NCBI GenBank assembly: GCA_963732385.1
Contig: CAVSZB010000008.1
Location: 64,001 to 128,000, forward strand
Source of the DNA: an uncultured bacterium
GTDB lineage: Bacteria > Krumholzibacteriota > Krumholzibacteriia > LZORAL124-64-63
Direction of reading: 5' to 3'
DNA length: 64,000 nucleotides
The notes below the pieces were generated by a model. The model had not been told where the DNA came from. It made no database searches and saw only the letters and a list, made by a program, of their open reading frames with translations. Each line of letters opens with the position of its first letter. The first letter of the stretch is position 1. Shown in pieces: positions 44,091 to 58,571 of the stretch. Both the position numbers and the translations under genes were made by a program.

Positions 44091-45585
44091 GCTGACGCCG
44101 CACCTTGTCCGCCACGTCCTCCCACTCCCCGGAACCCGGCGCTCCCCCCCGGTTCGCGGACCGGTTCAGCACCTCGGCGGCCGCCAGCAGTTCGCCCGCG
44201 ATTGTGGTGCGCTCGCTTTTCAGGTCGCGGGTCTCGCCCGGATCGGTCGCGAGGTCGAACAGCGCCAGAGGCTGGCCGTCGCGGGTGGCGATCAGCTTCC
44301 AGGGGCCGCGGCGGGCGGCGATCAGGTCGGGGCCGTAGGAGATTTCCTCGGCGAGAACGAGACGGCCCGGGTCGGGGGCGGCGCGGCCGGCGGCAAGCGG
44401 GGCGAGGGAGCGGCCGGCCAGCGCGGGTATGGCAGCCGGCAGGGGCAGCGGCGCGACGCCGAGCCAGTCGCATAACGTGGGGGCGACGTCGCATAGCGAC
44501 ACCGGTGTTTCCACGCGCGCGCCGGGAATGACGCCGGGGCCGGCGGCGAGCCACGGCACGTGCAGCACCTCCTGGAACTGCGTGTGGCCGTGGCCGATGC
44601 CGTGCAGGCCGCGGGGGTCGTGGTTCCAGCGGCGCGACGGTTCGAGGTGCTCGAGGAATTCCTCGCCGTGGTCTGAGTAGGCCGTGACCAGGGTGTTGCG
44701 GTCGAGGCCCCAGGCGGTGAGCTGGTCGATGGCGCCGCCAACCGCGTCGTCGGAGGCGACGACGCAGGCGTCGTAGAGGGCGAGTTTCAGGGCGAGGTCG
44801 GCGCGGACGGTTTCGTCAAGCGGAGTGGAGCAGAGGCCGAGGTGCGCAACGCCGCGAGCGGGGTCGCCCCAGCGGGCGAGGGCGCGCAGGCGGTCTCGCG
44901 TGGGGGTGGGCGGCCCTCCCGCCGCGCGGTAACCGGGGTCGGCCAGGCGTGGCGCGAGTCCGGCCCGCGACGGTGTGGTCGGTTCGTGGGGGTCGTTCAG
45001 CAGTACGAAACAGAAGAACGGCCGGTCGGCGTGGCGGCGGATCCACTCCAGGGCGAGGAATGTCACCTCGTGGGCCGGCAGATTGTGGTAGTGAGACTCC
45101 GCGAACGTCTCGGCCAAACCGAAACCGACGAACGGATTGGCGTAGAAGGCGGCCGTGCGGTAGCCCTGCCTCCCGAGGTGGGTGGCGAGGGTGACCGGGG
45201 CGCCGCCGTAGCGGCGGGGGGGCTCGCGGTCCAGGTTGCGCAGGGGACCGTCCAGACCGGCCCCGTGCAGCACCGGCATCACGCCGGTGAGCGAACTGGT
45301 GAACGATGGCAGGGTCCAGGGGGCCGGCGCGGTGACGTCGGCGAACTGCACGCCACGCGCGGCAAGGGCGTCGAGCGCGGGGGTGAGCCGGCGCGAACAG
45401 CCGGCGAGGCCGAGGCGGTCATTGCGCAGGGTGTCGATCGCCACCACGAGCAGGTTGGGAGGACCGGGACGGTCCTCACACACACGCGTCGGCAACAGCC
45501 ACCGACGGCCGTGGATGACGCGGCGTCGGGTCGCGGCCGCCAGTCGTTTCAGCCCGCCGCGCGCGGGAAACGGGTCGAACGGCAT
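44065..45585 (-). CDS. Sulfatase-like / alkaline phosphatase superfamily hydrolase or transferase
   Basis: IDTLRND, PWTLPSF, DPHEP, SDHGEE, HGH, LHVP. Confidence 0.85.
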   Translation of the reverse strand: MPFDPFPARGGLKRLAAATRRRVIHGRRWLLPTRVCEDRPGPPNLLVVAIDTLRNDRLGLAGCSRRLTPALDALAARGVQFADVTAPAPWTLPSFTSSLTGVMPVLHGAGLDGPLRNLDREPPRRYGGAPVTLATHLGRQGYRTAAFYANPFVGFGLAETFAESHYHNLPAHEVTFLALEWIRRHADRPFFCFVLLNDPHEPTTPSRAGLAPRLADPGYRAAGGPPTPTRDRLRALARWGDPARGVAHLGLCSTPLDETVRADLALKLALYDACVVASDDAVGGAIDQLTAWGLDRNTLVTAYSDHGEEFLEHLEPSRRWNHDPRGLHGIGHGHTQFQEVLHVPWLAAGPGVIPGARVETPVSLCDVAPTLCDWLGVAPLPLPAAIPALAGRSLAPLAAGRAAPDPGRLVLAEEISYGPDLIAARRGPWKLIATRDGQPLALFDLATDPGETRDLKSERTTIAGELLAAAEVLNRSANRGGAPGSGEWEDVADKVRRQLRELGYSD

Positions 45586-45598
45586 CCGGCCTCCGGAC

Positions 45599-46684
45599 TC
45601 AGGACGGGATGCGCAACTCCGCATCGATCCGCTTCGCCAGCGCGGTCACGTCCTCCGTCGACAAGGTCGTCTTTTTTCGGCGATCTACCAGCGATTGGAT
45701 GAGGCGCTTGGAGTCGACGCGGACAGCGGTGATGCCCGGCTTGAACTCCTTCCAGGCGCGCTCCTCGGCGTTCTTGAGCAGCGTGTCGGCGTCGCGAATG
45801 GAGGCCAGCGCGATGCCGCCCAGATCCCGCTCCAGGGAGTCATACGCCTTGGCCAGGTACCAGCTGCTCTCCGCCAGGTAGGTGCCGACGTTCAGGTGCG
45901 AAATATAGTTGGCGGCGTTCCGGAGCAGCCGGCGCGCCTCGCCGGAACGACCCTGCTCCAGGAGCACGAGCGCTTCCTGGTAGGCGCCGAAAGAGCGCTG
46001 GATGGGGCCGTCGACGTTCGGCAGGGCGACCGCGGCCCGCAGCTGGTCGCAGGCGGCGAGGCACTCGTCACGTTTGCCGTCGCGCTGCAGCCGCATGACG
46101 ACGTCGGTCATGGCGTTGAGGTCGTGCAGTGGATAGAGGAAACGATATTTCTCGAGGTCGAGCTGCAGACGCAAAAACGCCGTCACCGGATCCCCCCGGT
46201 CCCCCTGCTCCATCTGCTGGCGGAACTCGTATATGTCGTCCGTGAGGAGGGAGCTCGGGTTGTTCTGGCGGATCAACTCGTAGAGGATCTGGCAGTTCGT
46301 GCGATCCAGTTCGATGTCGGAGCGATCGTTCTCGGCGATCGAGATGCGCAGGTGGTCCACCCAGACATACAGGGTGTTGCCCACGCGGCGCGCGTAGCGC
46401 AGGGACATGACGCCGCTCGTCCGCGCCGCTTCCGTGACCTCGAGCAGCTGGCCGATCTCCCGGGGGACGCCGGGCGGACGCCCGCGTGAGGGGCCGGCCT
46501 GCGGTTCCGCGCGGGACGCCTCGGGGACCGGCTTGATCGGCCCGGGGGACTGGGCGACGGCAGGAATCGTCTGCCCGACGCCGGCCGCGATGACGACCGC
46601 CGCGGCGGCGGGGACGAACCTGCGGATCGGACGACCGGCCCGGATCTGGCGCCGGATCTTGCTCATGGCCGCTCGGATTCGCAT
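45599..46684 (-). CDS. Hypothetical exported alpha-helical protein
   Basis: Signal-like hydrophobic segment, Pro-rich linker, helical body; typical codon usage. Confidence 0.65.
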   Translation of the reverse strand: MRIRAAMSKIRRQIRAGRPIRRFVPAAAAVVIAAGVGQTIPAVAQSPGPIKPVPEASRAEPQAGPSRGRPPGVPREIGQLLEVTEAARTSGVMSLRYARRVGNTLYVWVDHLRISIAENDRSDIELDRTNCQILYELIRQNNPSSLLTDDIYEFRQQMEQGDRGDPVTAFLRLQLDLEKYRFLYPLHDLNAMTDVVMRLQRDGKRDECLAACDQLRAAVALPNVDGPIQRSFGAYQEALVLLEQGRSGEARRLLRNAANYISHLNVGTYLAESSWYLAKAYDSLERDLGGIALASIRDADTLLKNAEERAWKEFKPGITAVRVDSKRLIQSLVDRRKKTTLSTEDVTALAKRIDAELRIPS

Positions 46685-46710
46685 CGCTGACCTCCCGGAA
46701 CGGTATTCTC

Positions 46711-46739
46711 TTGATAACCGGGACATTCTGGTCTAATGT
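46711..46739 (+). promoter_or_regulatory. Possible sigma70 promoter for the 46.8-57.1 kb operon
   Basis: TTGATA - 17 nt - TAATGT in the divergent intergenic gap. Confidence 0.4.
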
Positions 46740-46800: not shown

Positions 46801-49158
46801 ATGTCCACAGCTTCCCGCTGCATGCGCCCGGCGGAGGGTCTGCTTGCCGCTCTGGTCCTGTTCGCGCTCGGCGCGAACCCGGCCGTGGCGGCAGTCGCCG
46901 ACCATCTGCTGCTGTCTGAGTTGGTCGTCCAGACACGCGCCGAGATTCCCGCGACGAAGTACATCGAACTGGTCAACCCGACGGCGTCGGCCATCGACCT
47001 CTCGACTGTCTACGTCACGGACGCGACCATCAGCACCACTCCCGCCTACTACTACAACCTCGTCAAACTCGGGGGGCTCGGAGGTGGTGGCGCCAGCGGG
47101 GACTTCCTTGCCCGATTCCCGAACGGGGCTTCAATCGCCGCCGGCGATACGATCGCGGTGGCGATCACCGGCAGCGGGGACTTCCAGACGGCCTACGGCC
47201 ATCTCCCCGATTACGAATTGTACGAGGAGGGGCTCGCGCCGGACAGCGTGCCTGAAATGGTCGAGGCGTTTCCCGGCAGCATCGGACGCGGCCTCGGCAG
47301 CAGCGGTACGAACGTGCCCGATCTGGCGTCGGTCGGCGAGTCGGTCGTTCTGTTCAGCTGGAACGGCCTGACCGACCTGGTGCAGGACCTGGACTACGCC
47401 TTGTGGGGCACTTCGTCATTGTACCGCGTGAGCAAGACCGGGGTGAGGATCGACGGTCCCGACGCCGGCTCCGATTCGACGACCTATCTGGCCGACACCG
47501 AGGTCACGTTGCAGAAGGCCATCGCCACGACGGTGCATGCGTTCGGAAACTCGTTCCAGCGCCTGTCGACCGACGAAGGGACCGAGGCCGCCACCGGCGG
47601 CAACGGCCTGACGGGCCACAACGAGATGAACGAGCAGCTCAACCTGACCTGGCGCGCGAACGCGGAAGACACGCCCGCGGCGGCGCCGCTCGTGGTCACG
47701 CCGCCGGCGCCGATCATCAGCGCCGTCGCGATGCAGCCGTCCGCGCCCGTGGCGGATCAGGCGACCACCGTCACCGCGACCGTGCTCGCGTTCGACAGCG
47801 TGAGCGCCGTGTCCGTATTCTGGAGCGACAACGGCACCACCTGGACCGAGGCGTCGTGCACGAGCACCGGCCTCAACACCTGGGCCGGCCAGATCCCGGC
47901 GCGCCCGCTCGACACGGTCGTGCTCTGGTACGTGCGCGCCACCGCCACCGGCGGCGGCCTCGCCACGAAGCCGGTCGCGGCGCCGAACTATTTCCAGACA
48001 TACACGGTTGCCGCGGCCCCCGAGCCGACCGATTACCCGCCGTTGCTGTTGATCACCGAGGTGTGCGTGCTTGGCTCGGAGAACGAGTTCGTGGAGATCG
48101 CCAATCCCACCGGCGCGGCGGTCGATCTGAGCAACTACTACCTGACCGACGCCATCTACTCCGGCCAGTACTACTGGAACATCGTCCTGCCCAACCCGGA
48201 CCAGACCACGGTGGGCGGCGGGGCGTTCACCGACTTCCATGCCCGCTTCCCGGCCGGCGCGACCATTGCCGCCGGCGATACGATCACGGTCAGTGTGGCG
48301 GGCAGCGACGCCTTCCTCGGCGCCTGGGGCATCCCGCCCGACTACGAGTTGTTCGAGGACGGCTCCGGCCCGGACGACGTGCCTGACATGCGCGAGGTCT
48401 TCCCGGGCAGTATCAACGGCTCATCGCTCCCCTCGCTCACCAACACCGGCGAGACCATGGTGCTCTACTACTGGAATGGCGCTACCGACCTGGTGACCGA
48501 CATCGACCTCTTCACCTGGGGCGCCGGCGGCTCGTATCTCTTCAGCAAGACAGGCGTCAGCATGGACGGCCCGGACGCCGACACGGTGCCGACGGCGTAC
48601 CAGGCCGATACCCCCACGGGCTCGCAGCAGTTGTTCACCACGGCGCATGCCTTCGGCGAATCCTACCAGCGGGTCGACGGTAACGAGGGAACCGAGGTCA
48701 AGACCGGCGGCAACGGCACGCTGGGGCACAACGAGACGAGCGAGAACCTCATGACGACCTTCCATATGGCTGTGGCCACCCCATCGCCGCCGGGCAGCAG
48801 CGAACCGGGCGGCGTCACCGGGGAGATCGCCATCGAGGTGCCTGCGCGCACCTTCCTGCCGTTGCTGGGCGAATCGTTCCCGATCCGCTTCCGTTCGCTG
48901 CGTGGGGCGCACACCGAGTTGCGGATCTACGACCTGACCGGGCGGCTCGTGCTGACGCTGTTCGACAGCCGCTTTGACGGCGCGGCTGCCTCCTCGTCCG
49001 GCCAGTGGACCCGGCGCGACTGGAACGGTCGTGACCGCCAGTTCGAACTGCTGCCCGCCGGCCTCTACGTGGTCCACCTGTCCGCCGTCGATCCGAAGAC
49101 CGGCAACGAAGAGACCAAGACGGCGCCCGTGGTTATGGCCACGCGGCTGAGCAAGTGA
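46801..49158 (+). CDS. Secreted protein with two lamin-tail-like (LTD) domains and a C-terminal FlgD-Ig/T9SS-like domain
   Basis: Signal peptide; duplicated LL(L/I)(S/T)E..(Y/F)(I/V)E..NPT...DLS..Y.TD; C-terminal IYDLTGRLV..WNGRD..LPAGLY. Confidence 0.8.
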   Translation: MSTASRCMRPAEGLLAALVLFALGANPAVAAVADHLLLSELVVQTRAEIPATKYIELVNPTASAIDLSTVYVTDATISTTPAYYYNLVKLGGLGGGGASGDFLARFPNGASIAAGDTIAVAITGSGDFQTAYGHLPDYELYEEGLAPDSVPEMVEAFPGSIGRGLGSSGTNVPDLASVGESVVLFSWNGLTDLVQDLDYALWGTSSLYRVSKTGVRIDGPDAGSDSTTYLADTEVTLQKAIATTVHAFGNSFQRLSTDEGTEAATGGNGLTGHNEMNEQLNLTWRANAEDTPAAAPLVVTPPAPIISAVAMQPSAPVADQATTVTATVLAFDSVSAVSVFWSDNGTTWTEASCTSTGLNTWAGQIPARPLDTVVLWYVRATATGGGLATKPVAAPNYFQTYTVAAAPEPTDYPPLLLITEVCVLGSENEFVEIANPTGAAVDLSNYYLTDAIYSGQYYWNIVLPNPDQTTVGGGAFTDFHARFPAGATIAAGDTITVSVAGSDAFLGAWGIPPDYELFEDGSGPDDVPDMREVFPGSINGSSLPSLTNTGETMVLYYWNGATDLVTDIDLFTWGAGGSYLFSKTGVSMDGPDADTVPTAYQADTPTGSQQLFTTAHAFGESYQRVDGNEGTEVKTGGNGTLGHNETSENLMTTFHMAVATPSPPGSSEPGGVTGEIAIEVPARTFLPLLGESFPIRFRSLRGAHTELRIYDLTGRLVLTLFDSRFDGAAASSSGQWTRRDWNGRDRQFELLPAGLYVVHLSAVDPKTGNEETKTAPVVMATRLSK

Positions 49159-49169
49159 GAGGGGAAGCG

Positions 49170-50080
49170 ATGATCAGGAACTGGACGGGACCGCTGCTCG
49201 CCCTCGCGCTGTGTCTCTGCGCGCTGCCGGCCGCCGCGAGTTTCGACAATGTCTCCGTCAGCCCGCGCGCCCGTGCCATGGGCGAGGCCGGCGTTGCGCT
49301 GGCGGACGATGCCTTCGCGCCCTACTTCAACCCGGCCGGCCTGGCGATCCTCGCCGAACCGACCGCGGGAGCCAGCTATATCCGGCCGTTCGCCCTGTCG
49401 TTCGCCGACTTCGTCTACTTCGGCGGCGCCGTCCCCCTGGGGGGCGCGCCGGCGTGGTGGGCGTGGGGCTGCGGCGCTTCGGTGTGGAGTACGGCGGCGT
49501 GGACCTGCTCCGTGAGACCACGCTGACGCTGGCGCACGGCCTGCGCGTCTACGAGGACCTGCACTCGACCCTGCGCGCCGGCTATGCGCTCAACGTGTAC
49601 AACCTGAAGTTCGGCCCGACCGTCGGCGAGGACGGCGCGGGCACCAACGGGCTCGACCCCGGCAGCGACACCGTGGTCGGTCTCGACGCCGGCCTGCTGG
49701 TGACCGTGCACGAGCGCACGCGCCTGGGCGTCATGGTGAAGAACCTGAACAACCCGCAGATCGGCCTCGACAACGAGGAGATCGGCCGGCGCCTCCAGGG
49801 CGGCGTGGCCTATGCGCCGTACGCGGGGGTCTGGACGACCTTCGAGTTCGAGAACGTCCTGGGCCAGGACGTGATCTACCACGGTGGCGTCGAGGTGCTC
49901 ATGGACTACGGCCTGGCGCTGCGCATGGGCGTCCTCTCGAACCCCGACAAGCTGACCGCCGGCTTCGGCTACCGCTGGCGCAGCCTCGGCGTCGACTATG
50001 GCTATTCCACCGGGGGCGGCACCCTCGACGGCAGCCATCAGTTCGGGCTGACCTGGGCCCTGGGCGGTGAGGCCAAGTGA
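49170..50080 (+). CDS. PorV/PorQ-like outer-membrane beta-barrel, frameshifted at G6 tract 49439-49444
   Basis: Signal peptide and ARAMGEA..YFNPAGLA in one frame; barrel strands ending LDGSHQFGLTW in another; adding one G joins them (VPLGGRAGVVG). Confidence 0.75.
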
Positions 50081-52614
50081 CACGCCGACGCCCAGCGGGC
50101 CCGCGCGGCGGGCCGGCCCTGATCGTGGCGCTGGCGTTCCTGGTGCTTGGCGCCGTGGCCGTGGCGCAGGAGGCGCCGCGGCTCGATCTCAACCGCTCCA
50201 CGCTCGAGCAGATGCAGGCCCTGCCCATCGACGCCGGCCTGGCCCGGCGCGTCTGGGAGTACCGCACCTACGAGCGCTTCTTCGCCAGCGTGTATGATCT
50301 CATGGATGTGGAGGGGATGACGGCGGCCGACCTCGAGCGGCTCAAGCCGCTCGTTTCGACGATGCCGCCGGGCATCGAGGACGCCCAGATGGCGCGCCTG
50401 GAGGCGAGTTACCGGCAGGTGCGGCAATTCCTCGGCCAGGAGGGGACCAACGAGGGGCTCGTGGATGAGTACCTCGACCAGTTGCGGGATCCGGTCAACG
50501 TCAACCGGCTCGATCTTTTCGACCTGATGTCGTACCAGAACATCTCGCCGGTGGATGCCGCCAACCTCATCAAGGCGCGCCGCCGGATCGGCGGTTTCGC
50601 CGATGCGCGCCAGCTCCGCGGGACCGAGGGCCTGCGCTACTACAGCTTCCGCAACCTGCGCGATTTCGTCACCTACGCCGATGCCGATTCGGCCGACCGG
50701 TACGACAGTCGCGTGCGCGGCAGCTACGAGATCCGGTACTACGACACGCCGTACGGCACCAGCGACCTCGACGTGATCGCCACCAGCACCGGTCAGATCT
50801 TTTCCGACCGCCTGCCGTCCAACCCCTACGCCGAGGGCGATCAGCAGTCCGATCCGACCATGACCCAGAAGCTGCGCCTGAATTTCGGCAACGGTTTCCA
50901 GGGCGGGCTGCTCACACACCGCAACCTCGGCGAGCGCTCCTGGCACGAGACCGTCAAGGGGTACTACGGCGTCAACGACAAGACCATCGGGGGCTTCCAC
51001 CTGAAGCGTCTCGTGTTCGGCAACTACCGGGTGGCGTTCGGCCTCGGCCTGATCATGGACAACACCGACTTCACCCTGTTCCGCAAGACCGGGTACGGCT
51101 GGAACGTCCGCCCGATCGGCCTGCGGGGCGACCTGAGCCGCACGCGCGAGTTCGCGCTGACCGGCGCCGCCGCGGAGGGGGTGTACGGGGGCCTGCACGC
51201 CACGGCGTTCGTTTCCACCGGTCGCAAGGACGGCATCCTCAATCCCGACGGGACCATCAATCGCTACGTCGTGATGACCCCCCGTCCGTCGGAGGAATAC
51301 CTCGACGCCCACCTCACCAGCGGTGGCGCGCCGACCGGGCTGCGGCGCGAGGCGTTCCGTGAGGACATCTTCGGCGGCAACCTGCGCTACATGCTGGGCG
51401 ACGGCACCTATGTCGGCGTGACCGGCTACGAGACGCGCTACGACCGCGGTTTCGATCCCGATCCGACCACGCTCTTCGCCGCCGCGGACATGGCGCGGCT
51501 CGAGGAGCGCGACAGCGAGATCTGGTCCGGTTACAGCAGCGTGCGCATCGATCCCGACACCGGCGAGCGGGTGGAGCACAAGTTCCGCCGGATCTACGGC
51601 GCCGATTTCCAGGCGGTGGCCGGCAACGCGGCCATCCAGGGGGAGTACGGCGTGCTGCAGGATCCAGGCGCGTCGCTGTTCCACGGCGCCAACCGCGACG
51701 CATTCATCGTCAACGGCTATGCCCAGTGGGAGGACCTGCACCTGCTGGCGATCTACCGCGACTACGACCTGGGCTTCGACAACCCGTACGGACGCGCTTT
51801 CTCGAACGACTCGCGTTACGAGCAGACGCTGATCGATTCCCCCTTCCGGATGCAGGACGACCTCTACTCGTTCCTGTCGCTGCGCACCCCGCAGCCGAAG
51901 CCGGAGCAGGGATTGTTCCTGCAGTCGCGTTACCGCATCAGCCGCACGCTGACCATCACCGGGCTCGAGTACGATCAGTGGAAGCGCAAGGCCGACGGCA
52001 TGGACATGAGCCGCTACACGCTGCGCGCGGAGTACCAGCCGATCTTCAACCTGCGTTTCCGCCTGCGGCACCGCTACAGCAGCCGTGGCGAGCAGTTTCC
52101 CACCGACGTCCGCGAATACCGCAACTGGGAGACCCGCTGGGAACTGCTGACGCTGCTGTCGAACTACAACAGCCTGAAATTCATGTACATGACCAGCAAC
52201 GTCATGTTCCCGGTGCGCCCGCGGCTAAGCTACCCGGCCGACCCCGGCACGGGGGAAAGCGCGGTCGGCACCGCCGGCATCCCGGCCCATGCCTTCCAGG
52301 CGATCTACGAGCACAACCTGACGCCGCACATCCGTCTCCTGTTCAGCAGCGAGGTCTATGACGGATTCCTCTGGAATTTCGAGGGGAACGAATTCACCAC
52401 CGTCGATGGCCGGGGGTTCCGCAACTGGTTCCAGTTCGAAAGCCGGGTCTCCGACCGGCTGCTCTACCAGCTCAAGATCACCCGCGACCACAATCTGCCG
52501 CACACCTGGGTCGACATCCGGAGCTACGGCGGTCCCATCGGACTCGAGCCGGAGGGCGCCTACGCGTCCAGGGACATCACGTCTGTCCGCATGCAGCTCG
52601 ATTACACCTTCTGA
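50077..52614 (+). CDS. ComEA-type helix-hairpin-helix domains fused to an outer-membrane beta-barrel
   Basis: LDLNRSTLEQMQALP..RVWEYR..F.SVYDL.VEG and VNVNR..DL..RRRIGGF..QLR..EGL; C-terminal VRMQLDYTF. Confidence 0.8.
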   Translation: MTRRRPAGPRGGPALIVALAFLVLGAVAVAQEAPRLDLNRSTLEQMQALPIDAGLARRVWEYRTYERFFASVYDLMDVEGMTAADLERLKPLVSTMPPGIEDAQMARLEASYRQVRQFLGQEGTNEGLVDEYLDQLRDPVNVNRLDLFDLMSYQNISPVDAANLIKARRRIGGFADARQLRGTEGLRYYSFRNLRDFVTYADADSADRYDSRVRGSYEIRYYDTPYGTSDLDVIATSTGQIFSDRLPSNPYAEGDQQSDPTMTQKLRLNFGNGFQGGLLTHRNLGERSWHETVKGYYGVNDKTIGGFHLKRLVFGNYRVAFGLGLIMDNTDFTLFRKTGYGWNVRPIGLRGDLSRTREFALTGAAAEGVYGGLHATAFVSTGRKDGILNPDGTINRYVVMTPRPSEEYLDAHLTSGGAPTGLRREAFREDIFGGNLRYMLGDGTYVGVTGYETRYDRGFDPDPTTLFAAADMARLEERDSEIWSGYSSVRIDPDTGERVEHKFRRIYGADFQAVAGNAAIQGEYGVLQDPGASLFHGANRDAFIVNGYAQWEDLHLLAIYRDYDLGFDNPYGRAFSNDSRYEQTLIDSPFRMQDDLYSFLSLRTPQPKPEQGLFLQSRYRISRTLTITGLEYDQWKRKADGMDMSRYTLRAEYQPIFNLRFRLRHRYSSRGEQFPTDVREYRNWETRWELLTLLSNYNSLKFMYMTSNVMFPVRPRLSYPADPGTGESAVGTAGIPAHAFQAIYEHNLTPHIRLLFSSEVYDGFLWNFEGNEFTTVDGRGFRNWFQFESRVSDRLLYQLKITRDHNLPHTWVDIRSYGGPIGLEPEGAYASRDITSVRMQLDYTF

Positions 52615-52630
52615 CGAGGAGCCTGAAGCG

Positions 52631-53947
52631 ATGAAGCAGAGAATGCGCAATCGGGCGGGCCGGCCGGCGGCGGTCGTGACGGGCCTGGTCGCCCTGCTGG
52701 CCGCGACGGTGGCAGGACCGGCCGCGGCCGATCCCGCGCTGCATACGCGCTACGGCGACCCGGCCACCTCGCTCTCCGCGGAGATCGACGCCATGGCCGG
52801 CACCGGTACGGCGCTCTTCCGTGGCGGCTTCTCGAACGTGCTCAACCCGGCCATGCTGGCCGCGGGCCCGGACGGGACGACCCTGGACGGCTCGCTGTCG
52901 CTCGCCCAGGCGCACGAGGACCGCTATATCCCGCTTTTCGACACGTTCACGAGCTACGTGACCGACACGGCCATCGCCTCGAACCGGCACCACTACTTCG
53001 GCACCGGTTTCGCCGTGGCGCACCGCCTGCCGTTCGCCTGGCGTCCGATCACCGCGGCCGTCTCGCTGACCGACCGCTACAGCTTCGCCTACGATTTCAA
53101 CGAGCAGATCCGCGACCCCGATACCTTCAACAGCCCGCGCGACGCGGTGCTGCAGGAGCGCGCGGTGGAGATCGACGGCACGCTGCGCGCGCTGTCCGGC
53201 GGTGCCGCCATCGAGCTCGGTCCGCGTCTGTCCCTGGGCGTGGCGGCCCACTATGCCTTCGGCACCCGCGACCAGATGCGCCGCGTGCGTGACTACGCCA
53301 CGCCGTCGTCGAGCCTGCTGGAGGATGCCAGCTTCGACATGGAGGGGCTGAATTTCACGTTCGGCGCCCGATTGCATGTGGATGAGCGGCTGGAACTCGG
53401 GCTCACCTACGAATCGCCGCTGGCGGTGACCGGGAGGACGCTGACCGAGACCTATTTCGGCGCCTATCCCGATTCGGTGCTTTCGGTTACCGGCACCACC
53501 GGGGTGGACTATCCGCGCGCTTTCCGCGCCGGTCTGGCGTACCGCCCCCGCAGCGCGCCGCGCACCGTCTTCACGGTGGATGCGGCCTGGCGCGAATGGA
53601 GCGAACTTGATGACAGCCGGCTGGCGGGAGACAACCCGCTGCTGTTGCAGGACGCGATCGACGTGAGCATCGGGGTGGAGCACCGGTTCTACAACGGCCT
53701 GCCGGTCCGGTTCGGATTCCGGCGGCTTGACTCCTACGATGACCGTGAGGTCGGGGCCTCGTTCTTCACGGCAGGTGTCGGTCTGGACGCCGGCGGAGGC
53801 ACGGTTTCCGTCTCGACGGAACTGAGCAAGACCAACAGCATTCGCGACCACTGGTTCGCCTACCCGGCGACCTTCGTGGTCGAGCAGCAGGCGCGCGTGG
53901 AGGATACCCGGTTCCGCATCGGCGTCGGCTGGAGTCGCGCCTTTTGA
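52631..53947 (+). CDS. Outer-membrane beta-barrel protein (FadL/PorV-like)
   Basis: Signal peptide, AMAGTG..LNPAML hatch-like motif, amphipathic strands, terminal Phe (GVGWSRAF). Confidence 0.72.
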   Translation: MKQRMRNRAGRPAAVVTGLVALLAATVAGPAAADPALHTRYGDPATSLSAEIDAMAGTGTALFRGGFSNVLNPAMLAAGPDGTTLDGSLSLAQAHEDRYIPLFDTFTSYVTDTAIASNRHHYFGTGFAVAHRLPFAWRPITAAVSLTDRYSFAYDFNEQIRDPDTFNSPRDAVLQERAVEIDGTLRALSGGAAIELGPRLSLGVAAHYAFGTRDQMRRVRDYATPSSSLLEDASFDMEGLNFTFGARLHVDERLELGLTYESPLAVTGRTLTETYFGAYPDSVLSVTGTTGVDYPRAFRAGLAYRPRSAPRTVFTVDAAWREWSELDDSRLAGDNPLLLQDAIDVSIGVEHRFYNGLPVRFGFRRLDSYDDREVGASFFTAGVGLDAGGGTVSVSTELSKTNSIRDHWFAYPATFVVEQQARVEDTRFRIGVGWSRAF

Positions 53948-55314
53948 CCACGCTCCCGGGAGGAGCTGACACCTTGCCGCATACCGGCCGATCCTCGCCC
54001 GCGCGGCGTGCCGCCCTCGCGCGGTTCGCTGCGTTACCGCTGCTCGCCGTCCTGGGGCTGCTGGCGGGCGGCTGCGGCGATTCGGCCACCTCGCCCGAAC
54101 CGGTCACGGTGGTTGCCCGTTTCACCGGTCTGTCCGGGCGGCAGGTGGCCTGGTCCACGAACGTTCCCTCGCGCGGCGCCGTGCGCTACGGCTTCGTGAG
54201 CGGGCAGTATGACCATATAGCCTGGCCGGCGGCGGCGGGCGGGGCGGACAAGGCGTACACCCAGAGTCACGCCGTGCCGTTGCTCGACGATGTCACCGGA
54301 CGCACGGTCTTCATCCAGTGCATCGACGTCACCCAGGAGGGATTTTTCGCCGCCGCGCAAGAGACCGCCCTCACCTTCGCCGCCATGCCGGCGACGGCGC
54401 CCCTGCTCCGCTTCACCTCGGTCGACGTCCAGTTCGGCGATGCGCAAGTGCTGCGCCTGCCGACGGCCGGCAGCGTGGTCGCCATCGACGGCGGCAATCC
54501 CTATGTGACCGTCAGCGGCGAGACGGCGCCTCAGCACGTGATGCACTGGCTGGACGACCGGGGCATCACCCGGCTCGACGTCGCGCTCGCCACGCACATG
54601 CACGGCGACCACGTGGGCGGCCTGCTCCGGGACGGCGCCGGCGGCGTGGGCCTGCTGGAGCATTGCCAGATCGGTCTCTACCTCGACGTGCCGGCCGTGA
54701 CCGGCAATGCCTACAACCAGGTCGCGGTGAATACGATCCTGGCCGAACGCGAGATCACGAAGCGGATCATCGCGCCCGGCATGACCTCCGCCACCGAGCC
54801 CGACGCTCTCGACTGGGACTCCGCCGTGGAGGTCATGGTGCTCAACGCCGGCGCCCAGCCGGAGTGGGCCGGCGGCGACCTGAACAACGACTCGGTGGTG
54901 CTGAAGATCAGCTACGGCGCCGTCGACCTGATCACGGGGGGCGACTGCCTCGTGCTGGGCGAGACGCGCATCCTGACTTACTTCCCCGGCGCGCTGGCCG
55001 GCGTGGAGTACTTCAAGGCGAGCCACCACGGTCGCGCGAACGCCAACAGTCTGGCCTACCTGATGGCGATCGCGCCGCGGTTGTCGGTGATCCCGGTCGC
55101 CTTCATCGCCTACAACGAGGGCCCTGACCAGGGCGCGAAGGACACCGCGCAGACGCTGGAACGCCTGGCCAACCTGCGCACCGACGTTTTCCGCTTCGAC
55201 GCGGCCGCGCCCCTGGCCCGGCCGCAGGACAACCATACTTTCTGGCATACGACGTTCACCACCGACGGCGCCAGCTACGAAGTGCGCATCGAGCCGTCGG
55301 TCTGGGGGCTGTAG
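53944..55314 (+). CDS. Lipoprotein with ComEC/Rec2-type metallo-beta-lactamase fold
   Basis: Lipobox LAGGC; DVQFGDA, IDGG, THMHGDHVGG, NNDSVVL, TGGD, SHHG. Confidence 0.85.
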   Translation: MTTLPGGADTLPHTGRSSPARRAALARFAALPLLAVLGLLAGGCGDSATSPEPVTVVARFTGLSGRQVAWSTNVPSRGAVRYGFVSGQYDHIAWPAAAGGADKAYTQSHAVPLLDDVTGRTVFIQCIDVTQEGFFAAAQETALTFAAMPATAPLLRFTSVDVQFGDAQVLRLPTAGSVVAIDGGNPYVTVSGETAPQHVMHWLDDRGITRLDVALATHMHGDHVGGLLRDGAGGVGLLEHCQIGLYLDVPAVTGNAYNQVAVNTILAEREITKRIIAPGMTSATEPDALDWDSAVEVMVLNAGAQPEWAGGDLNNDSVVLKISYGAVDLITGGDCLVLGETRILTYFPGALAGVEYFKASHHGRANANSLAYLMAIAPRLSVIPVAFIAYNEGPDQGAKDTAQTLERLANLRTDVFRFDAAAPLARPQDNHTFWHTTFTTDGASYEVRIEPSVWGL

Positions 55315-55364
55315 CGCCCCTGGCCCGCGGCCGGTTTGCCGGCCGGCCGTCCCGAGGAGAGATC

Positions 55365-57119
55365 GTGATGCAAGTCGCCAATGCTTCCGTCGCCCGTCGT
55401 TCCCTCGTCCCCGCCGCCGTCCGCCGCGGCCTCCTGGCCGCCGCTGCGTTGGCGCTGGCGGTCGCTCTCGGCGGCGCCGCCGTCCCCGCGGGGGAGCCCG
55501 AGGATGGCGTGCTGCGGATCCATCTGCTCTGGACGAACGACCTGCACGGCCACATCGGCCCGGAGGGGGCCCGCTTCATGAACCCCAACTTCCCGCCCCC
55601 GCTCGGCGGCGCCGCCTCGGCGGCCGCCTACATCAGGCGGGTGCGGGAGACGGCGGCCGCGGCGGGCGAAGAGGTCCTGCTGGTCGATGTGGGCGACATG
55701 TTCCAGGGGACGCCGGTCGGCACGAAGACGCAGGGCACGTCGGTCATCGACTACTTCAACCACATCGGGTATGACCTGGCCGTGCCGGGCAACCACGACT
55801 TCGATCTCGGCCGCCAGAACGCCGAGCGCCTGGCCCGCCTCTCGCAGTTCCCCTGGCTGTGCGCCAATCTCGTCGAGAAGGACACCGGCAAGGTGGTCGA
55901 CTGGTGTCGGCCCACGCTGATGCTGGAGAGGGGCGGGTTGAAGATCGGCGTGATCGGCATCATCACCCCCGGCACGGCGAGCATGTCCTTTCCCGCCAAT
56001 ATCAAGGGCCTCGATTTCCGCCCGATGGCCGACACCGTGACGCAGTATCGTGACGAACTGCGGGCGCAGGGCGCCCAGCTCATCTTCCTGGCCATCCACG
56101 ACGGACTTCCGTTCAACGCCGAGCAGGCGTGGCGCAAGCGCGTGGAGTCGGCCGAGGAGGACGCGCTGCGGCCGCAGCGCAGCTTCGGCACCTATGGCGG
56201 CCTGGGGCTGGACGGACTGGTGGCGGAGGTGCCGGGGATCGATTTCGCCGTCGGCGGCCACACCCACCGCGGCTACACCGAGCCGTGGGTCGACCCGGTG
56301 CACCACACCCTCTGTTTCGAGTCGTACGGCAACGGCTCGAGCCTCGGCCACGCGATCCTCGAAATCGACCGGCGCACGGGCGGACTGATCGGCTGGAAGG
56401 GGCCGCACGACCAGGGGGTCCTGGTCAGCCTGTTCGAGGACGAGATCTGGCCCGACGAGGCGACGCGACAGGTCATCCAACCGTGGCTCGAAAAGACCGA
56501 CGCCGAGATGAACCGGGTCGTGGGGCATCTCGCGGTGAATCTGCCCCGCGGCGGCGCCGGCAACAACCTGGTGGGAAACCTGGTCACCGACGCGATGCGG
56601 GCGCAGTTCAACGCCGATCTCGCCATCCAGAATCTGGGCGGTCTGCGCGCCGACATGCAGGCCGGCGAGGTCACGGCGCGGGACATTTTCAGCGTGCTGC
56701 CGTTCGGCAATGAACTGGTGGTGGCGAAGATCCCCGGTGAGCTGCTGCTGCGACTCTTCGAGCGCAAGGTGGCCGGTTCTAGCGGCGGCATCTGCGTGTC
56801 CGGTGCGCAGGTCGAGTTCAACCCCGACCGCCCGGACGGCCAGCGGCTCTGCTCGCTGACGATCGGCGGCGCGCCGATCGACGCCGGCAAGGTCTACACC
56901 ATGGTTCTGACCAACTACCTGATGGAAGGCAACAGCGGCCTCGAAATGCTGACATCGGTGCCCGAGACGGATGTTGAGCCGACCCGGCTCACCGATGGCG
57001 AAGTACTCGAGGCGTATCTGCGGAAAGAGGGGACCGTCCGGCCGAAGCTGGACGATCGCTGGCTGGAGCAGAGAGGGTGCGCCCGGGCCGCCTACCTGCC
57101 CCCGCCGGGCGCCTCCTGA
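55365..57119 (+). CDS. Bifunctional metallophosphatase / 5'-nucleotidase (UshA/CpdB family), exported
   Basis: NDLHG, DVGD, GNHDFD, GGHTH, NLGGLRA, LPFGN. Confidence 0.92.
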   Translation: MMQVANASVARRSLVPAAVRRGLLAAAALALAVALGGAAVPAGEPEDGVLRIHLLWTNDLHGHIGPEGARFMNPNFPPPLGGAASAAAYIRRVRETAAAAGEEVLLVDVGDMFQGTPVGTKTQGTSVIDYFNHIGYDLAVPGNHDFDLGRQNAERLARLSQFPWLCANLVEKDTGKVVDWCRPTLMLERGGLKIGVIGIITPGTASMSFPANIKGLDFRPMADTVTQYRDELRAQGAQLIFLAIHDGLPFNAEQAWRKRVESAEEDALRPQRSFGTYGGLGLDGLVAEVPGIDFAVGGHTHRGYTEPWVDPVHHTLCFESYGNGSSLGHAILEIDRRTGGLIGWKGPHDQGVLVSLFEDEIWPDEATRQVIQPWLEKTDAEMNRVVGHLAVNLPRGGAGNNLVGNLVTDAMRAQFNADLAIQNLGGLRADMQAGEVTARDIFSVLPFGNELVVAKIPGELLLRLFERKVAGSSGGICVSGAQVEFNPDRPDGQRLCSLTIGGAPIDAGKVYTMVLTNYLMEGNSGLEMLTSVPETDVEPTRLTDGEVLEAYLRKEGTVRPKLDDRWLEQRGCARAAYLPPPGAS

Positions 57120-57142
57120 CCTGCCCGGACTTCTCGTCGGAG

Positions 57143-57172
57143 GCGGCCGGACCGGCGTCCGGCCGCTTTTTT
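57143..57172 (+). terminator. Rho-independent terminator
   Basis: GCGGCCGGAC-CGGC-GTCCGGCCGC-TTTTTT. Confidence 0.88.
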
Positions 57173-57326
57173 GCGCCCTCCTGGCCGACCCGTGCCGGTT
57201 CGCGGTGAGGCCTCAAGCCGGTCCATCCCCGGCCGAATCAAACCCGTACGTGGCAATCATCTCCGCGCCGGCGACCCGGATCGCCTCCCGGCGCCGGAGC
57301 GCAACCTTCGACCGGAGGTCGACGGA

Positions 57327-58571
57327 GTGGTTCAGCTCAGGCCCGAGCGGACGAACGAACAGCTCCAGCGTTTCGGCTCCCGCATGAACAAGATGATCGT
57401 CGGCCAGCCCCGGGCCATCGATCGGATCACGGACAGCTTCAGCCGACTCATCGCGGGGATCCAGGACCCCGAGCAGCCGCTGCTGACGATGTTGTTTCTG
57501 GGGCCCACCGGGGTCGGCAAGACCGAAACCGTGCGCGCGCTGGCCGAAACGATCTTCGGCAACCGGCGGGCCTTCACCCGGATCAGCTGCCAGGAGTATT
57601 CGGCGCACTACAACATCTCCAAGCTGCTCGGTTCGCCCCCCGGCTATGTCGGCGGGGAGATCCGCCCCCTGCTCGCACAGGAGAATCTCGACCGTCACCA
57701 CAAGAAATCGCTTGAGAACCAGTCGGGCATGATCTGCGAGGCGGGCGGCAAGCTGAGCCGGTTGTTCCCTCCCGACTCCGACCGCAACCTGGCGATCGTC
57801 CTGTTCGACGAGATCGAGAAGGCCCACCCCAAGATGTGGAATCTGCTGTTGGGGATTCTGGAGGACGGCCGCCTCGTCCTGGGCAACAACGAGGAGGTCG
57901 ACTTCACGCGGGCCATCGTCGTGCTGACCACCAATGTCGGCAGCGAGGCGATGGGCGCCCATCTGACCCAGAGCCAGATCGGATTTTCCGCGGGCAGCGA
58001 CGCCAACGAGCTCAATCGCAATCTAGATGAGGCGGCCCGGCGCGCCGCCCGCAAGGTCTTCCCGCACGAGTTCCTCAACCGCTTCGACGACCTGGTCACG
58101 TTCCAGTCGCTCCAGGAGGCGCATCTGTTCCAGATCCTGGACAACCAGATCGCGCAGATCCACCACCGCTCGTTGCGATGCGCGGAGCCGTTCCTGCTGG
58201 AGGTCACGCCGGCCGCGAAGCGACGGCTGGTGGAGGCGGGCACGGACGCCAAGTTCGGCGCGCGTCCGCTCAAGCGGGTGGTCGAGCAGCGTCTGGTCAC
58301 CCCCATCTCGCGCTACATCTGCAGCGATCAGATCCGCAAGGGCGACCTGATCACGGTCGACCTGATCGGCGAGGAGTTCGTATTCCTCAGGGAGACGGGC
58401 GTGACGAGCTGGGAGGAGCTGGAAGGACTCGGCCCCTTCCCGCCGGCCAAGTGGGCGCGGACAGACCTCGGCGTGAAGGATGATGGCGGCGAGAAGAAGG
58501 AGATCGTCGAGAACGCAGTGCGCGTGGACGCCCACGCCGGCGTGCTGGAGGGCGTCGGCGCGCCCGAGTGA
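57327..58571 (+). CDS. Stand-alone ClpA/B/C D2-type AAA+ ATPase
   Basis: GPTGVGKT, GSPPGYVG, LFDEIEKAH, QIGFS, EFLNR, GARPL; GTG after GGAGG. Confidence 0.85.
   Translation: MVQLRPERTNEQLQRFGSRMNKMIVGQPRAIDRITDSFSRLIAGIQDPEQPLLTMLFLGPTGVGKTETVRALAETIFGNRRAFTRISCQEYSAHYNISKLLGSPPGYVGGEIRPLLAQENLDRHHKKSLENQSGMICEAGGKLSRLFPPDSDRNLAIVLFDEIEKAHPKMWNLLLGILEDGRLVLGNNEEVDFTRAIVVLTTNVGSEAMGAHLTQSQIGFSAGSDANELNRNLDEAARRAARKVFPHEFLNRFDDLVTFQSLQEAHLFQILDNQIAQIHHRSLRCAEPFLLEVTPAAKRRLVEAGTDAKFGARPLKRVVEQRLVTPISRYICSDQIRKGDLITVDLIGEEFVFLRETGVTSWEELEGLGPFPPAKWARTDLGVKDDGGEKKEIVENAVRVDAHAGVLEGVGAPE

Follow-up and report, generated by a model that had tools for sequence, protein, structure and literature searches.

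A conserved outer-membrane operon with an HhH-barrel protein as a candidate nucleic-acid foraging locus of mostly uncultured phyla

Analysis of a 64,000-nucleotide stretch of DNA from an uncultured member of the Krumholzibacteriota (hereafter the window) revealed six genes, g1 to g6, all on the + strand at 46801-57119 (Table 1), five of which (g1 with its lamin-tail and C-terminal domains, g2, g3, g4 and g6) form a core whose order is kept across several mostly uncultured phyla. In our judgement the locus probably serves nucleic-acid or nucleotide foraging, working much as ddbABCDEF does but with unrelated parts. Feeding on environmental DNA or RNA is likely because the core is conserved with a nucleotidase-family gene always and a nuclease gene often. 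The original prediction had the locus bind, cut, import and dephosphorylate nucleic acid; synteny, the nucleotidase, the ComEC-type metallo-beta-lactamase (MBL) and the nuclease neighbours speak for a nucleic-acid utilisation locus, whereas the transfer of DNA binding to the HhH modules and the constancy of the MBL did not stand.

Table 1. Positions in the window of the six genes, their domains and the terminator-like hairpin
Feature	Position	Strand	Description
g1	46801-49158	+	785 aa; T9SS-tailed lamin-tail surface protein
g1 lamin-tail repeat 1	about 46900-47671	+	LTD Pfam
g1 lamin-tail repeat 2	about 48037-48796	+	LTD Pfam
g1 T9SS-type CTD	about 48811-49155	+	structure model match
g2	49170-50080	+	PorV/PorP-like small outer-membrane barrel; ~300 aa in relatives
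g3	50077-52614	+	845 aa; two ComEA-fold HhH modules and predicted 24-strand barrel
g3 HhH module 1	about 50176-50361	+	Pfam HHH_3
g3 HhH module 2	about 50488-50670	+	Pfam HHH_3
g3 barrel	about 50713-52611	+	AlphaFold2; C-terminal Phe
g4	52631-53947	+	FadL/TodX/BamG-family outer-membrane barrel
g5	53944-55314	+	predicted lipoprotein, ComEC-type MBL domain; optional operon member
g6	55365-57119	+	exported UshA-like 5'-nucleotidase (calcineurin-like phosphoesterase and 5_nucleotid_C)
Intrinsic-terminator-like hairpin	57139-57172	+	T6 run at end

The intergenic distances from g1 to g6 are, in order, 11, -4, 16, -4 and 50 nt, and the genes are followed by a hairpin (57139-57170) with a T6 run (fold of 57120-57185: -35 kcal/mol, z -2.7, 2 of 200 shuffles equally stable). 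These ORF coordinates and the hairpin fold bear out the gene number, order, overlaps and terminator claimed earlier; the consensus scan listed no terminator at the operon end and no sigma-70 site on the + strand upstream of g1. Export signals of the operon proteins were assigned by eye. The earlier domain calls also hold (two LTDs, a PorV/PorP-like barrel, two HHH_3 modules, a FadL/BamG-like barrel, a ComEC-type MBL and a 5'-nucleotidase), those of g2 and g4 with matches below the cut-offs. A Clp-type AAA+ gene, unrelated to the operon, follows downstream in 51 of 52 Krumholzibacteriota loci, and synteny inside this phylum is therefore partly inheritance. As an operon member this gene was rejected: it lies past the terminator and was not found in the metagenome or Eisenbacteria-set loci.

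Among the best 80 of 280 g3 matches in GTDB, which gave 79 loci, all loci with enough flank carried the CTD and g2 (71/71), g4 (66/66) and g6 (54/54). The best 80 of 372 matches in distant loci from metagenomes (27-35% identity, with Marinimicrobia as the source of the nearest named homologues) gave the same picture for g2 (68/68), the CTD (57/57), g4 (72/72) and g6 (37/37), counts that overstate independent events because these loci are mutually related. A nucleotidase-family gene was present in every long-type locus of sufficient length among these best-ranked matches (56/56 in GTDB and 37/37 in the metagenomes, 93/93 together). The core was also found in a set of relatives including Ca. Eisenbacteria, and flanking genes differ between the Krumholzibacteriota, Eisenbacteria and distant metagenome loci. 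The strong synteny thus extends beyond the organism's own phylum (GTDB, metagenome and Eisenbacteria-set loci).

A g5-type MBL occurs in 11 of the 56 GTDB loci with enough flank and in three of seven Eisenbacteria-set loci, and since the MBL is optional the six-gene form is a minority; what is conserved of the arrangement first described is the five-gene core. Other lineages put EEP or endonuclease I genes where the MBL sits, and three unrelated nuclease folds join the locus. Of 37 metagenome loci, 32 encode the EEP domain, which in 29 is part of the same protein as the g6 phosphoesterase domain; endonuclease I was detected in 8 of 80 (best 80 of 372 matches). Nuclease neighbours were seen in four of six g3 clusters at 50% identity, independent gains being judged from such identity clusters. 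Loci of distant lineages also contain OB-fold domains, and in one distant locus (L158) an upstream gene carries DUF5689, the DdbD family. Against foraging counts that in 45 of the 56 GTDB loci the stretch covered shows no nuclease of these three types.

The g3 protein joins two HhH modules (HHH_3, E 6e-16, 58.8 bits against a cut-off of 27) to a barrel. Its AlphaFold2 model (pLDDT 89.9, pTM 0.88) has a helical N-terminus and 24 long strands as counted, and the N-terminal module resembles ComEA 8dss (Z 11.9, rmsd 1.3, 65 aa, 31% identity). The modules are predicted from the model to lie on the periplasmic side, and they share the HhH-pair fold of ComEA (8dss, 2duy; V. cholerae, PMC3879209). Fold searches with the barrel gave no close solved match, only distant barrels, for example FimD (Z 13.2, rmsd 4.5, 9% identity). 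The ushers PapC and FimD are alike to g3 in strand number, but identity is 9-10%, rmsd 4.5-4.9, there is no usher Pfam match and the model lacks a plug sandwich.

The binding of dsDNA by HhH modules had earlier been carried over to g3, and this part of the prediction was not supported. Of the g3 N-termini, none of the 68 close ones and one of the 61 distant ones carry the G[IVL]Gx(x)[KR] signature of ComEA (missing in 128 of 129), and the score against TIGR01259 was 29.6 bits (cut-off 152). Module 1 is net acidic (median -4 among close homologues). In module 2 the residue equivalent to K63 is Asp in all close rows (100%) and in 92% of the distant ones, and conserved Arg/Tyr are retained in its second hairpin. 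In V. cholerae, K63E kills ComEA function (PMC3879209). Because the GIG hairpin and the K62/K63 pair are lost and Asp stands at the K63 position of module 2, the dsDNA binding of ComEA is not transferable to g3; judged by sequence, its two fused modules are a ComEA fold without the DNA-binding signature. Most likely they are a gate or scaffold beneath the pore, or a non-canonical binder of short fragments, and not a ratchet like that of ComEA.

The first gene encodes a signal peptide, two extended lamin-tail repeats (LTD, Pfam E 1e-15, two stretches), an Ig-like linker and a T9SS-type C-terminal domain (CTD), with no recognisable catalytic domain and no match in a PDB sequence search. A model of repeat 2 with the CTD (pLDDT 92.7) matched DUF4876 BT_1938 best overall (4q1z; Z 14.2, rmsd 3.1, 197 aa), and the best matches of the CTD were those of PorU (6za2; Z 10.6, rmsd 2.8, 99 aa) and PorZ (5m11; Z 9.4); by sequence it gave weak matches to CHU_C and FlgD_ig, under the cut-offs. 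Some homologues of g1 carry OB folds that resemble the OB region of ExeM/NucH (E 2e-6). LTDs are not known to have a nucleic-acid function, and the LTD is dispensable for the activity of Xds (PMC6746945), which counts against foraging.

The second gene had been proposed as a PorV-like barrel, and it is one ORF in relatives, although its frame is split in the window by a 1-nt deletion in a G6 run (49439-49444). The pieces match PorV_fam (E 5e-10 and 6e-5) and PorP_SprF (E 6e-4), and an intact homologue reaches 64.7 bits (cut-off 90) and 19.3 bits (cut-off 22.3), respectively. All 136 related loci with both CTD and g2 matches, a few of them duplicates, have a single ORF, and contigs of three of four sequencing runs carry an extra base at the G6 run, the closest-matching run being without a contig across the spot. 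The frameshift is thus probably an assembly error, and a true pseudogene was rejected as the first choice. A CTD gene followed by a small PorV/PorP-family barrel gene is also the arrangement of type-B CTD cargo (PG1035-PorP, SprB-SprF; PMC9143113), and SprA-like and PorU-like genes are present in the genome. In contrast to that cargo, g1 is from outside Bacteroidota and is tied to a large HhH barrel and nucleotide enzymes, and its CTD falls below all family cut-offs and may be of type A or B. Modelled as a complex, g2 and the barrel of g3 (L011 sequences, with alignments) scored 0.00, which is informative for neither side.

The fourth gene matches Toluene_X under the cut-off (E 4e-5), which homologues exceed, and BamG (NF053685) with E 9e-18 (64.6 bits, cut-off 250), and a PDB sequence search returned TodX alone (E 0.13); no BamA gene is found at the locus. 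This BamG likeness bears on the alternative that survives best, which we nevertheless hold unlikely: that g1, g2 and g3 form an ancient envelope module that displays proteins, senses the surface or assembles the outer membrane, pairing a large barrel with small FadL-type ones as in SprA-PorV and BamA-BamG; the HhH modules would then have a structural role, and in some lineages the nucleotide enzymes would be passengers sharing the transcript. The short g3 relatives agree with such a module and count against foraging, as four Eisenbacteria-set loci (L218-L221) have a triad of LTDx2-CTD, PorV-like protein and single-HhH barrel with neither g4 nor g6, and Bacteroidota relatives adjoin nadA/radical-SAM genes. 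Parabacteroides has a g2-like/g3-like pair (hhalign 97.2% and 99.7%) with no adjacent nucleotide enzyme. Orthology of g2 to its 269-aa protein is only modestly supported by sequence, since the g2 profile gives this protein 52.8 bits versus 62.8, 53.6 and 50.7 for PorV paralogues, while the reverse profile ranks g2 first. A scan of viral contigs with the Bacteroidota g3-like protein gave no match. The lost HhH signature and the near-universal presence of g3 in one family of the phylum (65 of 70 genomes) also fit an envelope role. Against it, g6 accompanies the long type in every locus with enough flank, nucleases of three folds join the locus, and searches of six other families of the phylum left most genomes without a g3 match, a distribution that does not suit an essential assembly machine.

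The g5 product is predicted from its sequence to be a ComEC-type nuclease with the metal ligands intact. Among solved structures it is nearest to the ComEC domains 30bt (E 2e-19) and 9ic4 (E 6e-17), with which it shares the sequence family and the equivalents of the ligands H598, D602, H603, D700 and H725 (PMC12455585); all 13 aligned sequences keep HxHxDH, the motif-4 Asp and HHG unchanged, and the lipobox Cys is present in all 12 full-length homologues aligned. Unlike ComEC, it is a separate protein, predicted to be a lipoprotein and extended by a further domain at the N-terminus; His replaces D600 and Arg replaces S728, and no Competence (PF03772) channel domain was matched by Pfam, as anticipated. 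The phosphorylcholine esterases Pce/CbpE match with E 0.03-0.56, about 17 orders of magnitude farther than ComEC by E-value, and that enzyme was rejected as the first choice for g5, in keeping with the earlier call.

The product of g6 matches Metallophos and 5_nucleotid_C (E 2e-34 and 7e-10), has 3ivd (E 4e-54) and UshA as nearest solved relatives and keeps the metal-site motifs NDLHG, DVGD, GNHDF and GGHTH. Its score against the UshA equivalog is 172 bits (cut-off 600), below the cut-off, and UshA likeness therefore does not set its substrate range. 5'-nucleotidases accept NAD and UDP-sugars too, which counts against foraging on nucleic acid. In a more doubtful alternative, the locus would scavenge dissolved small molecules, either nucleotides or phosphoesters related to them (NAD, UDP-sugars, cyclic nucleotides), rather than polymers, with g5 as a general phosphodiesterase. 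It gains from g6 being the sole constant enzyme, from the GTDB loci being mostly without a nuclease, from the two replaced residues of g5 and from Pce being the nearest structural homologue of the ComEC domain (PMC12455585), but the endonuclease I, EEP, OB-fold and DUF5689 neighbours indicate polymers, g5 is much closer to ComEC than to Pce, and a 24-strand barrel would be unneeded for small solutes.

The rest of the genome was consistent with a T9SS link and with a role other than classical competence, both part of the original prediction. A SprA-like frame of 2254 codons (SprA_N over the cut-off), C25 peptidases, one of them adjoining a PorV-family gene, and 82 FlgD_ig matches over the cut-off were found, and by these sequence matches a T9SS translocon is present. 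PilM, two secretins, one of them near PilM, a ComEA-like gene and a ComEC gene lie away from the operon, the one Competence (PF03772) match of the genome being at G000:C7:433463-434257; a CNT nucleoside transporter and DeoC are also encoded. In the most doubtful alternative, g3 would admit DNA through the outer membrane for natural transformation, independently of a pilus, and pass long DNA to ComEC while the nucleases and nucleotidase recycle the discarded strand. This reading has on its side a wide barrel with a ComEA fold predicted to face the periplasm, the ComEC gene, the retained Arg/Tyr of module 2, Thermus ComEA, which likewise lacks the lysine pair in the alignment, and an outer-membrane step given as unknown for P. 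gingivalis (PMC11532111). Against it, extracellular nucleases next to an uptake gate would counter transformation; PilM, a secretin nearby and a separate ComEA-like gene whose Gly hairpins are intact are encoded in the genome; and a Riemerella screen assigned outer-membrane transport to RA0C_RS04915/04920, homologues of DdbC/D (PMC8459023, PMC12478041).

Under the foraging reading, the PorV-like g2 would keep the T9SS-tailed g1 on the cell surface, nucleases would cut the polymer outside, the predicted 24-strand barrel of g3 would let fragments into the periplasm, and the 5'-nucleotidase g6 would release nucleosides and phosphate. Import through g3 is inferred only. g1 may catch substrate or cap the pore, its repeat resembling DUF4876, a proposed transporter lid, and relatives swapping in OB folds, and g4 may act as an anchor or as another small channel. 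Such a locus would serve nutrition and salvage rather than transformation. Like ddbABCDEF and the Riemerella RA0C_RS04915/04920 system, this six-gene locus follows a PUL-like logic and brings a surface protein and predicted secreted nucleases together with a large barrel of the outer membrane (PMC12478041, PMC8459023), and DUF5689 and OB folds in relatives of the locus add to the likeness. DdbC, however, is a TonB-dependent transporter with 22 strands and a plug, whereas the modelled g3 has 24 strands and HhH modules; no TonB-receptor match was found by Pfam in the six operon proteins and no DUF5689 in the genes of the window. Here g1 is T9SS-tailed with its own PorV-like barrel in place of a lipid anchor, and the 5'-nucleotidase and FadL-like barrel belong to the core. 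The LTD, OB, EEP and 5'-nucleotidase domains of the ExeM/Xds nucleases (PMC6746945) and UshA all recur among the loci, where they are distributed over several genes alongside outer-membrane barrels.

The g3 barrel family is without a close solved homologue. A literature search of limited reach (titles and abstract openings, with subscription papers mostly outside it) found no study of such a barrel or account of the operon, in line with the earlier remark that no description of this arrangement was known. Bacteroidota have a homologous large HhH barrel (e.g. WP_121956131.1 with WP_121956132.1; hhalign 99.7%, 450 columns; Atlas models TM 0.84-0.85 by the shorter protein), in Parabacteroides with a small PorV-like barrel just upstream, but it is of about 680 aa with one HhH module, four records have no FadL-like, nucleotidase or nuclease neighbour, and the small barrel is adjacent in one of the four.

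Extracellular DNA is a major source of C, N and P in sediments (PMC8289736). The crossing of the outer membrane by DNA is known for few Gram-negative foragers, and the operon is a conserved candidate for it in abundant uncultured phyla, testable in the cultured species Caldithrix abyssi, which carries the g3 homologue Calab_1208, and in shorter relatives from tractable Bacteroidota. Should foraging prove wrong, the barrel with its partner proteins would still be an unstudied FCB-wide envelope module. We suggest, tentatively, that g3 may found a so far undescribed channel family across the FCB group that would pass nucleic acids through wide outer-membrane pores, with a repurposed ComEA fold as the gate inside and a lamin-tail lid delivered by T9SS. 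Its long form would feed marine and sediment 'dark matter' phyla (Marinisomatota, Krumholzibacteriota, Eisenbacteria and Calditrichota) on dissolved DNA, while the short form of Bacteroidota would be an unnoticed route of nucleic-acid entry in the gut.

The six co-oriented genes of the operon (g1 to g6: LTD/CTD protein, PorV-like barrel, HhH barrel, FadL-like barrel, MBL protein and 5'-nucleotidase) lie where the original prediction placed them, with intergenic gaps of 11, -4, 16, -4 and 50 nt, and the proposed closing terminator was recovered by folding as a hairpin with T6 at its end (z -2.7). A consensus terminator scan gave no entry for this hairpin, probably because the T run is absorbed by G-T pairing. 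Family scans agreed with the earlier assignment of two LTDs in g1, two HHH_3 domains in g3, a FadL/BamG-like g4 and a 5'-nucleotidase in g6; for PorV/PorP in g2 and MBL/ComEC in g5 matches were present but weak, and solved ComEC domains were nearest to g5. Signal peptides of the operon proteins were judged by eye. In the window g2 is interrupted by the loss of a single nucleotide at a G6 run. The deletion is absent from the loci of the two closest relatives (88% and 94% DNA identity), g2 is a single ORF in 136/136 related loci, and contigs from three of four runs carry the extra base, the closest run being without a bridging contig. The frameshift is most likely an assembly error; alternatively it may be a strain-specific loss. 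The assembly of the nearest relative (loci L032 / L061) has many single-base frameshifts across the operon, and g2 is nevertheless in frame there. Upstream stand a divergent weak-TPR gene, found only in the closest relatives, and beyond it a sulfatase-family gene that is upstream of the operon in most own-family loci.

Of the own-family genomes, 65/70 gave strong g3 matches, as did 8/10 from family f6 and one of five from f2; matches in the genomes searched from six other families were weak or absent. Among 79 GTDB loci, taken from the best 80 of 280 g3 matches and counted where the flank was long enough, both the CTD gene and g2 lie upstream of g3 in 71/71, g4 follows it in 66/66, g6 is kept in 54/54 and g5 is present in 11/54 (11/56 when the flank limit is set slightly lower). 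In 51/52 Krumholzibacteriota loci the operon has on its 3' side a stand-alone gene for a ClpB-C-terminal-like AAA+ protein (56-97% identity), which did not turn up next to the operon in the other lineages examined; because this unrelated gene is also kept, the synteny within the phylum is partly inheritance. The distant subfamily, 80 metagenome loci (best 80 of 372; GC 26-58%) with flanking genes different from those in Krumholzibacteriota, has g2 in 68/68, the CTD gene in 57/57, g4 in 72/72 and g6 in 37/37, and its 64 full-length g3 proteins share 27-35% identity with the one from the own genus. Close homologues of the metagenome query are named Marinimicrobia/Fidelibacterota. In the relatives of genome G158 the long form (g3 with two HhH modules) occurs in 9/41 genomes, with the same gene order in seven loci and MBL in three; no g4 was detected in locus L211, and L212 begins within g2. 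The source names one of these loci Ca. Eisenbacteria, and the six-gene form is thus present in at least two phyla. Conservation of the neighbourhood, suggested originally as a check, held for the core order in all three sets. Further g3 homologues carry names from Calditrichota (Caldithrix abyssi Calab_1208), WOR-3 and Cloacimonadota. One genome (G014) has three copies of the locus (L018, L019, L021), and in some members of the Eisenbacteria set the operon leads into a bacterial alpha-2-macroglobulin gene.

The expectation that the HhH modules of g3 bind dsDNA as in ComEA fared worse. The signature G[IVL]Gx(x)[KR] was found in 0/68 close and 1/61 distant g3 N-termini (1/129 altogether). Module 1 reads LP-IDAGLA, with the Gly deleted and a net acidic character. 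In module 2 the stretch is QNISPVDA, and the place of K63, assigned manually from the motif, is taken by Asp in 100% of close and 92% of distant rows. According to the report on V. cholerae ComEA (PMC3879209), transformation is abolished by K63E as well as by K62/63A, and the double mutant no longer binds DNA. The ComEA-like protein of the own genome retains GLG and GIG. Because the signature is gone and Asp occupies K63, canonical ComEA-mode binding by g3 seems unlikely from sequence, although Thermus ComEA is likewise without the lysines in the alignment examined and module 2 retains invariant Arg and Tyr residues in its second hairpin; g3 falls outside ComEA.

The g3 model (132 sequences; pLDDT 89.9, pTM 0.88) has a helical N-terminus, then 24 long strands and a Phe at the end, and the even strand number would place the N-terminus in the periplasm. 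In the fold search module 1 matched ComEA 8dss (Z 11.9, rmsd 1.3), and the barrel matched distant barrels only, by size ushers (Z 13.2, rmsd 4.5, 9% identity). Alignments with three TonB-dependent transporters start at model residues 83-90, a hint that module 2 may sit in or under the lumen. Weak matches to the g3 barrel profile (E 1e-5 to 1e-3) inside SprA-sized frames of 1900-2000 codons could reflect remote relationship or coincidence. In the g1 model (pLDDT 92.7) the CTD resembles those of PorU (Z 10.6) and PorZ (Z 9.4), and the best overall match is DUF4876 BT_1938 (Z 14.2; aligned range 4-331), for which a preprint proposes a role as TonB-dependent transporter lid (10.1101/2023.03.17.533168). 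The arrangement of a CTD gene with a PorP-like gene after it is reminiscent of the type-B anchoring described in PMC9143113.

A phosphorylcholine esterase had been named as the alternative for g5, and it is the weaker match (Pce, E 0.03-0.56), as ComEC beta-lactamase-like domains are the nearest solved relatives (E 2e-19 and 6e-17); g5 is thus probably ComEC-type. Its HxHxDH, motif-4 Asp and HHG show no variation in 13/13 sequences, and equivalents of H598, D602, H603, D700 and H725 are present, while the window's g5 differs from ComEC in having His for D600 and Arg for S728. The ComEC domain is reported as an endo- and 5'-3' exonuclease (PMC12455585). Both nucleotidase domains of g6 are present with intact metal motifs.

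Metagenome loci without MBL have a separate EEP gene after g6 in 31/37, and in 29/37 the nucleotidase C-terminal domain is substituted by an EEP domain. Natural fusions of calcineurin-like phosphoesterase and EEP (L135 and many of L130-L196) are possibly nuclease-nucleotidases in a single chain. T9SS-tailed endonuclease I genes occur in 8/80 metagenome loci (best 80 of 372), and 4/6 g3 clusters at 50% identity, whose members are not independent, show a nuclease neighbour. In g1 homologues the CTD is constant and the body is exchanged, being at least two LTD repeats (five, with CBM56-like linkers, in a g1 of 1978 aa), Ig repeats accompanied by OB folds, or a combination of LTD and OB; the OB folds are similar to the OB region of ExeM/NucH (best E 2e-6). 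One upstream gene in a distant metagenome locus carries DUF5689, the family of DdbD according to PMC12478041. Immediately upstream of g1 the distant subfamily has a second T9SS cargo with a type A tail and LTD and PKD domains, sometimes with a cytochrome c-like or DUF5689/OB domain.

Locations of the features (coordinates without prefix are in the window; G000, the window's own genome; other G, genomes; C, contigs; L, compared loci)
Feature	Location	Strand	Remark
Sulfatase-family gene	44065-45624	-	
Weak-TPR gene	45599-46726	-	
G6 run in g2	49439-49444		
Terminator hairpin	57139-57170		
ClpB-C-terminal-like AAA+ gene	57171-58571	+	past terminator; likely start near 57327
Other nuclease-like or LTD genes	G000:C5:288909-290756, C6:123666-125591, C7:1223394-1224683, C7:1590656-1593484		
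Weak g3-profile matches	G138:C64:13279-13479, G144:C1:114973-115326, G152:C59:15304-15489		
Second T9SS cargo	L117:4424-7102, L136:1313-4180, L167:4047-6956 and others		upstream of g1
Phosphoesterase-EEP fusion	L135:7976-9925		
Long g1	L021:123-6059		
Operon with alpha-2-macroglobulin gene	L210:665-6232		

The own genome (3.8 Mb in 9 contigs, 96% complete), for which the names of homologues indicate Ca. Krumholzibacteriota, encodes T9SS parts. These are a SprA_N match within a frame of 2254 codons and three C25 peptidases, one of them adjoining a PorV-family gene, together with five PorV-family genes and 82 FlgD_ig matches, both above cut-off. Its competence set lies apart from the operon (PilM ~4 kb from a secretin, a ComEA-like gene standing alone and a complete ComEC), and a CNT nucleoside transporter and DeoC are also encoded. 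Further nuclease-like genes have T9SS tails; the four tabulated regions hold FlgD/T9SS-tailed endonuclease I-like and ComEC-type MBL genes, another MBL and a second extended-LTD protein.

It could also be that g1-g2-g3 is an old envelope module with the nucleotide enzymes as passengers. In four loci of the Eisenbacteria set, genes for an LTDx2-CTD protein, a PorV-like barrel and a short, single-HhH barrel occur with neither g4 nor g6, so this triad looks older than the link to nucleotide enzymes, which lends the passenger explanation some weight. Of the GTDB loci, 45/56 have none of the three nuclease types (MBL, EEP, endonuclease I), which counts against a locus collecting nucleic-acid parts. 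Of 7998 candidates scored, at least 2167 clusters belong to the short family. In the Atlas the Caldithrix protein is linked to Bacteroidota clusters of 664-705 aa (TM 0.84-0.85, shorter model), and in a Parabacteroides distasonis record a 269-aa gene is followed by an HhH gene of 686 aa. By sequence comparison the latter is linked to g3 uniquely both ways (alignment 99.7%, E 1e-25, 450 columns), and the link of the former to g2 is modest (97.2%, E 4e-11). Bacteroides, Phocaeicola and Prevotella records have the short barrel without the adjoining small barrel.

Among the papers listed in our literature searches, none dealt with the operon or its barrel; PMC8459023, PMC11532111, PMC6746945, PMC8289736 and PMC11495043 were also drawn on, and Marinisomatota lineage UBA2242 is reported from DNA-amended cultures (PMC8630151). 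The operon would work in a manner like ddbABCDEF, from which it differs in being without a TonB-dependent transporter and DdbD. With moderate confidence we regard the long-form operon as a nucleic-acid foraging system, as originally proposed. Parts, order, folds and catalytic motifs were observed, and from them we infer binding, transport and regulation: g1, held on g2, would capture the substrate or act as a cap, g5 or other secreted nucleases would cut, g3 would be the passage route, g6 would dephosphorylate, and the CNT transporter would complete the uptake.
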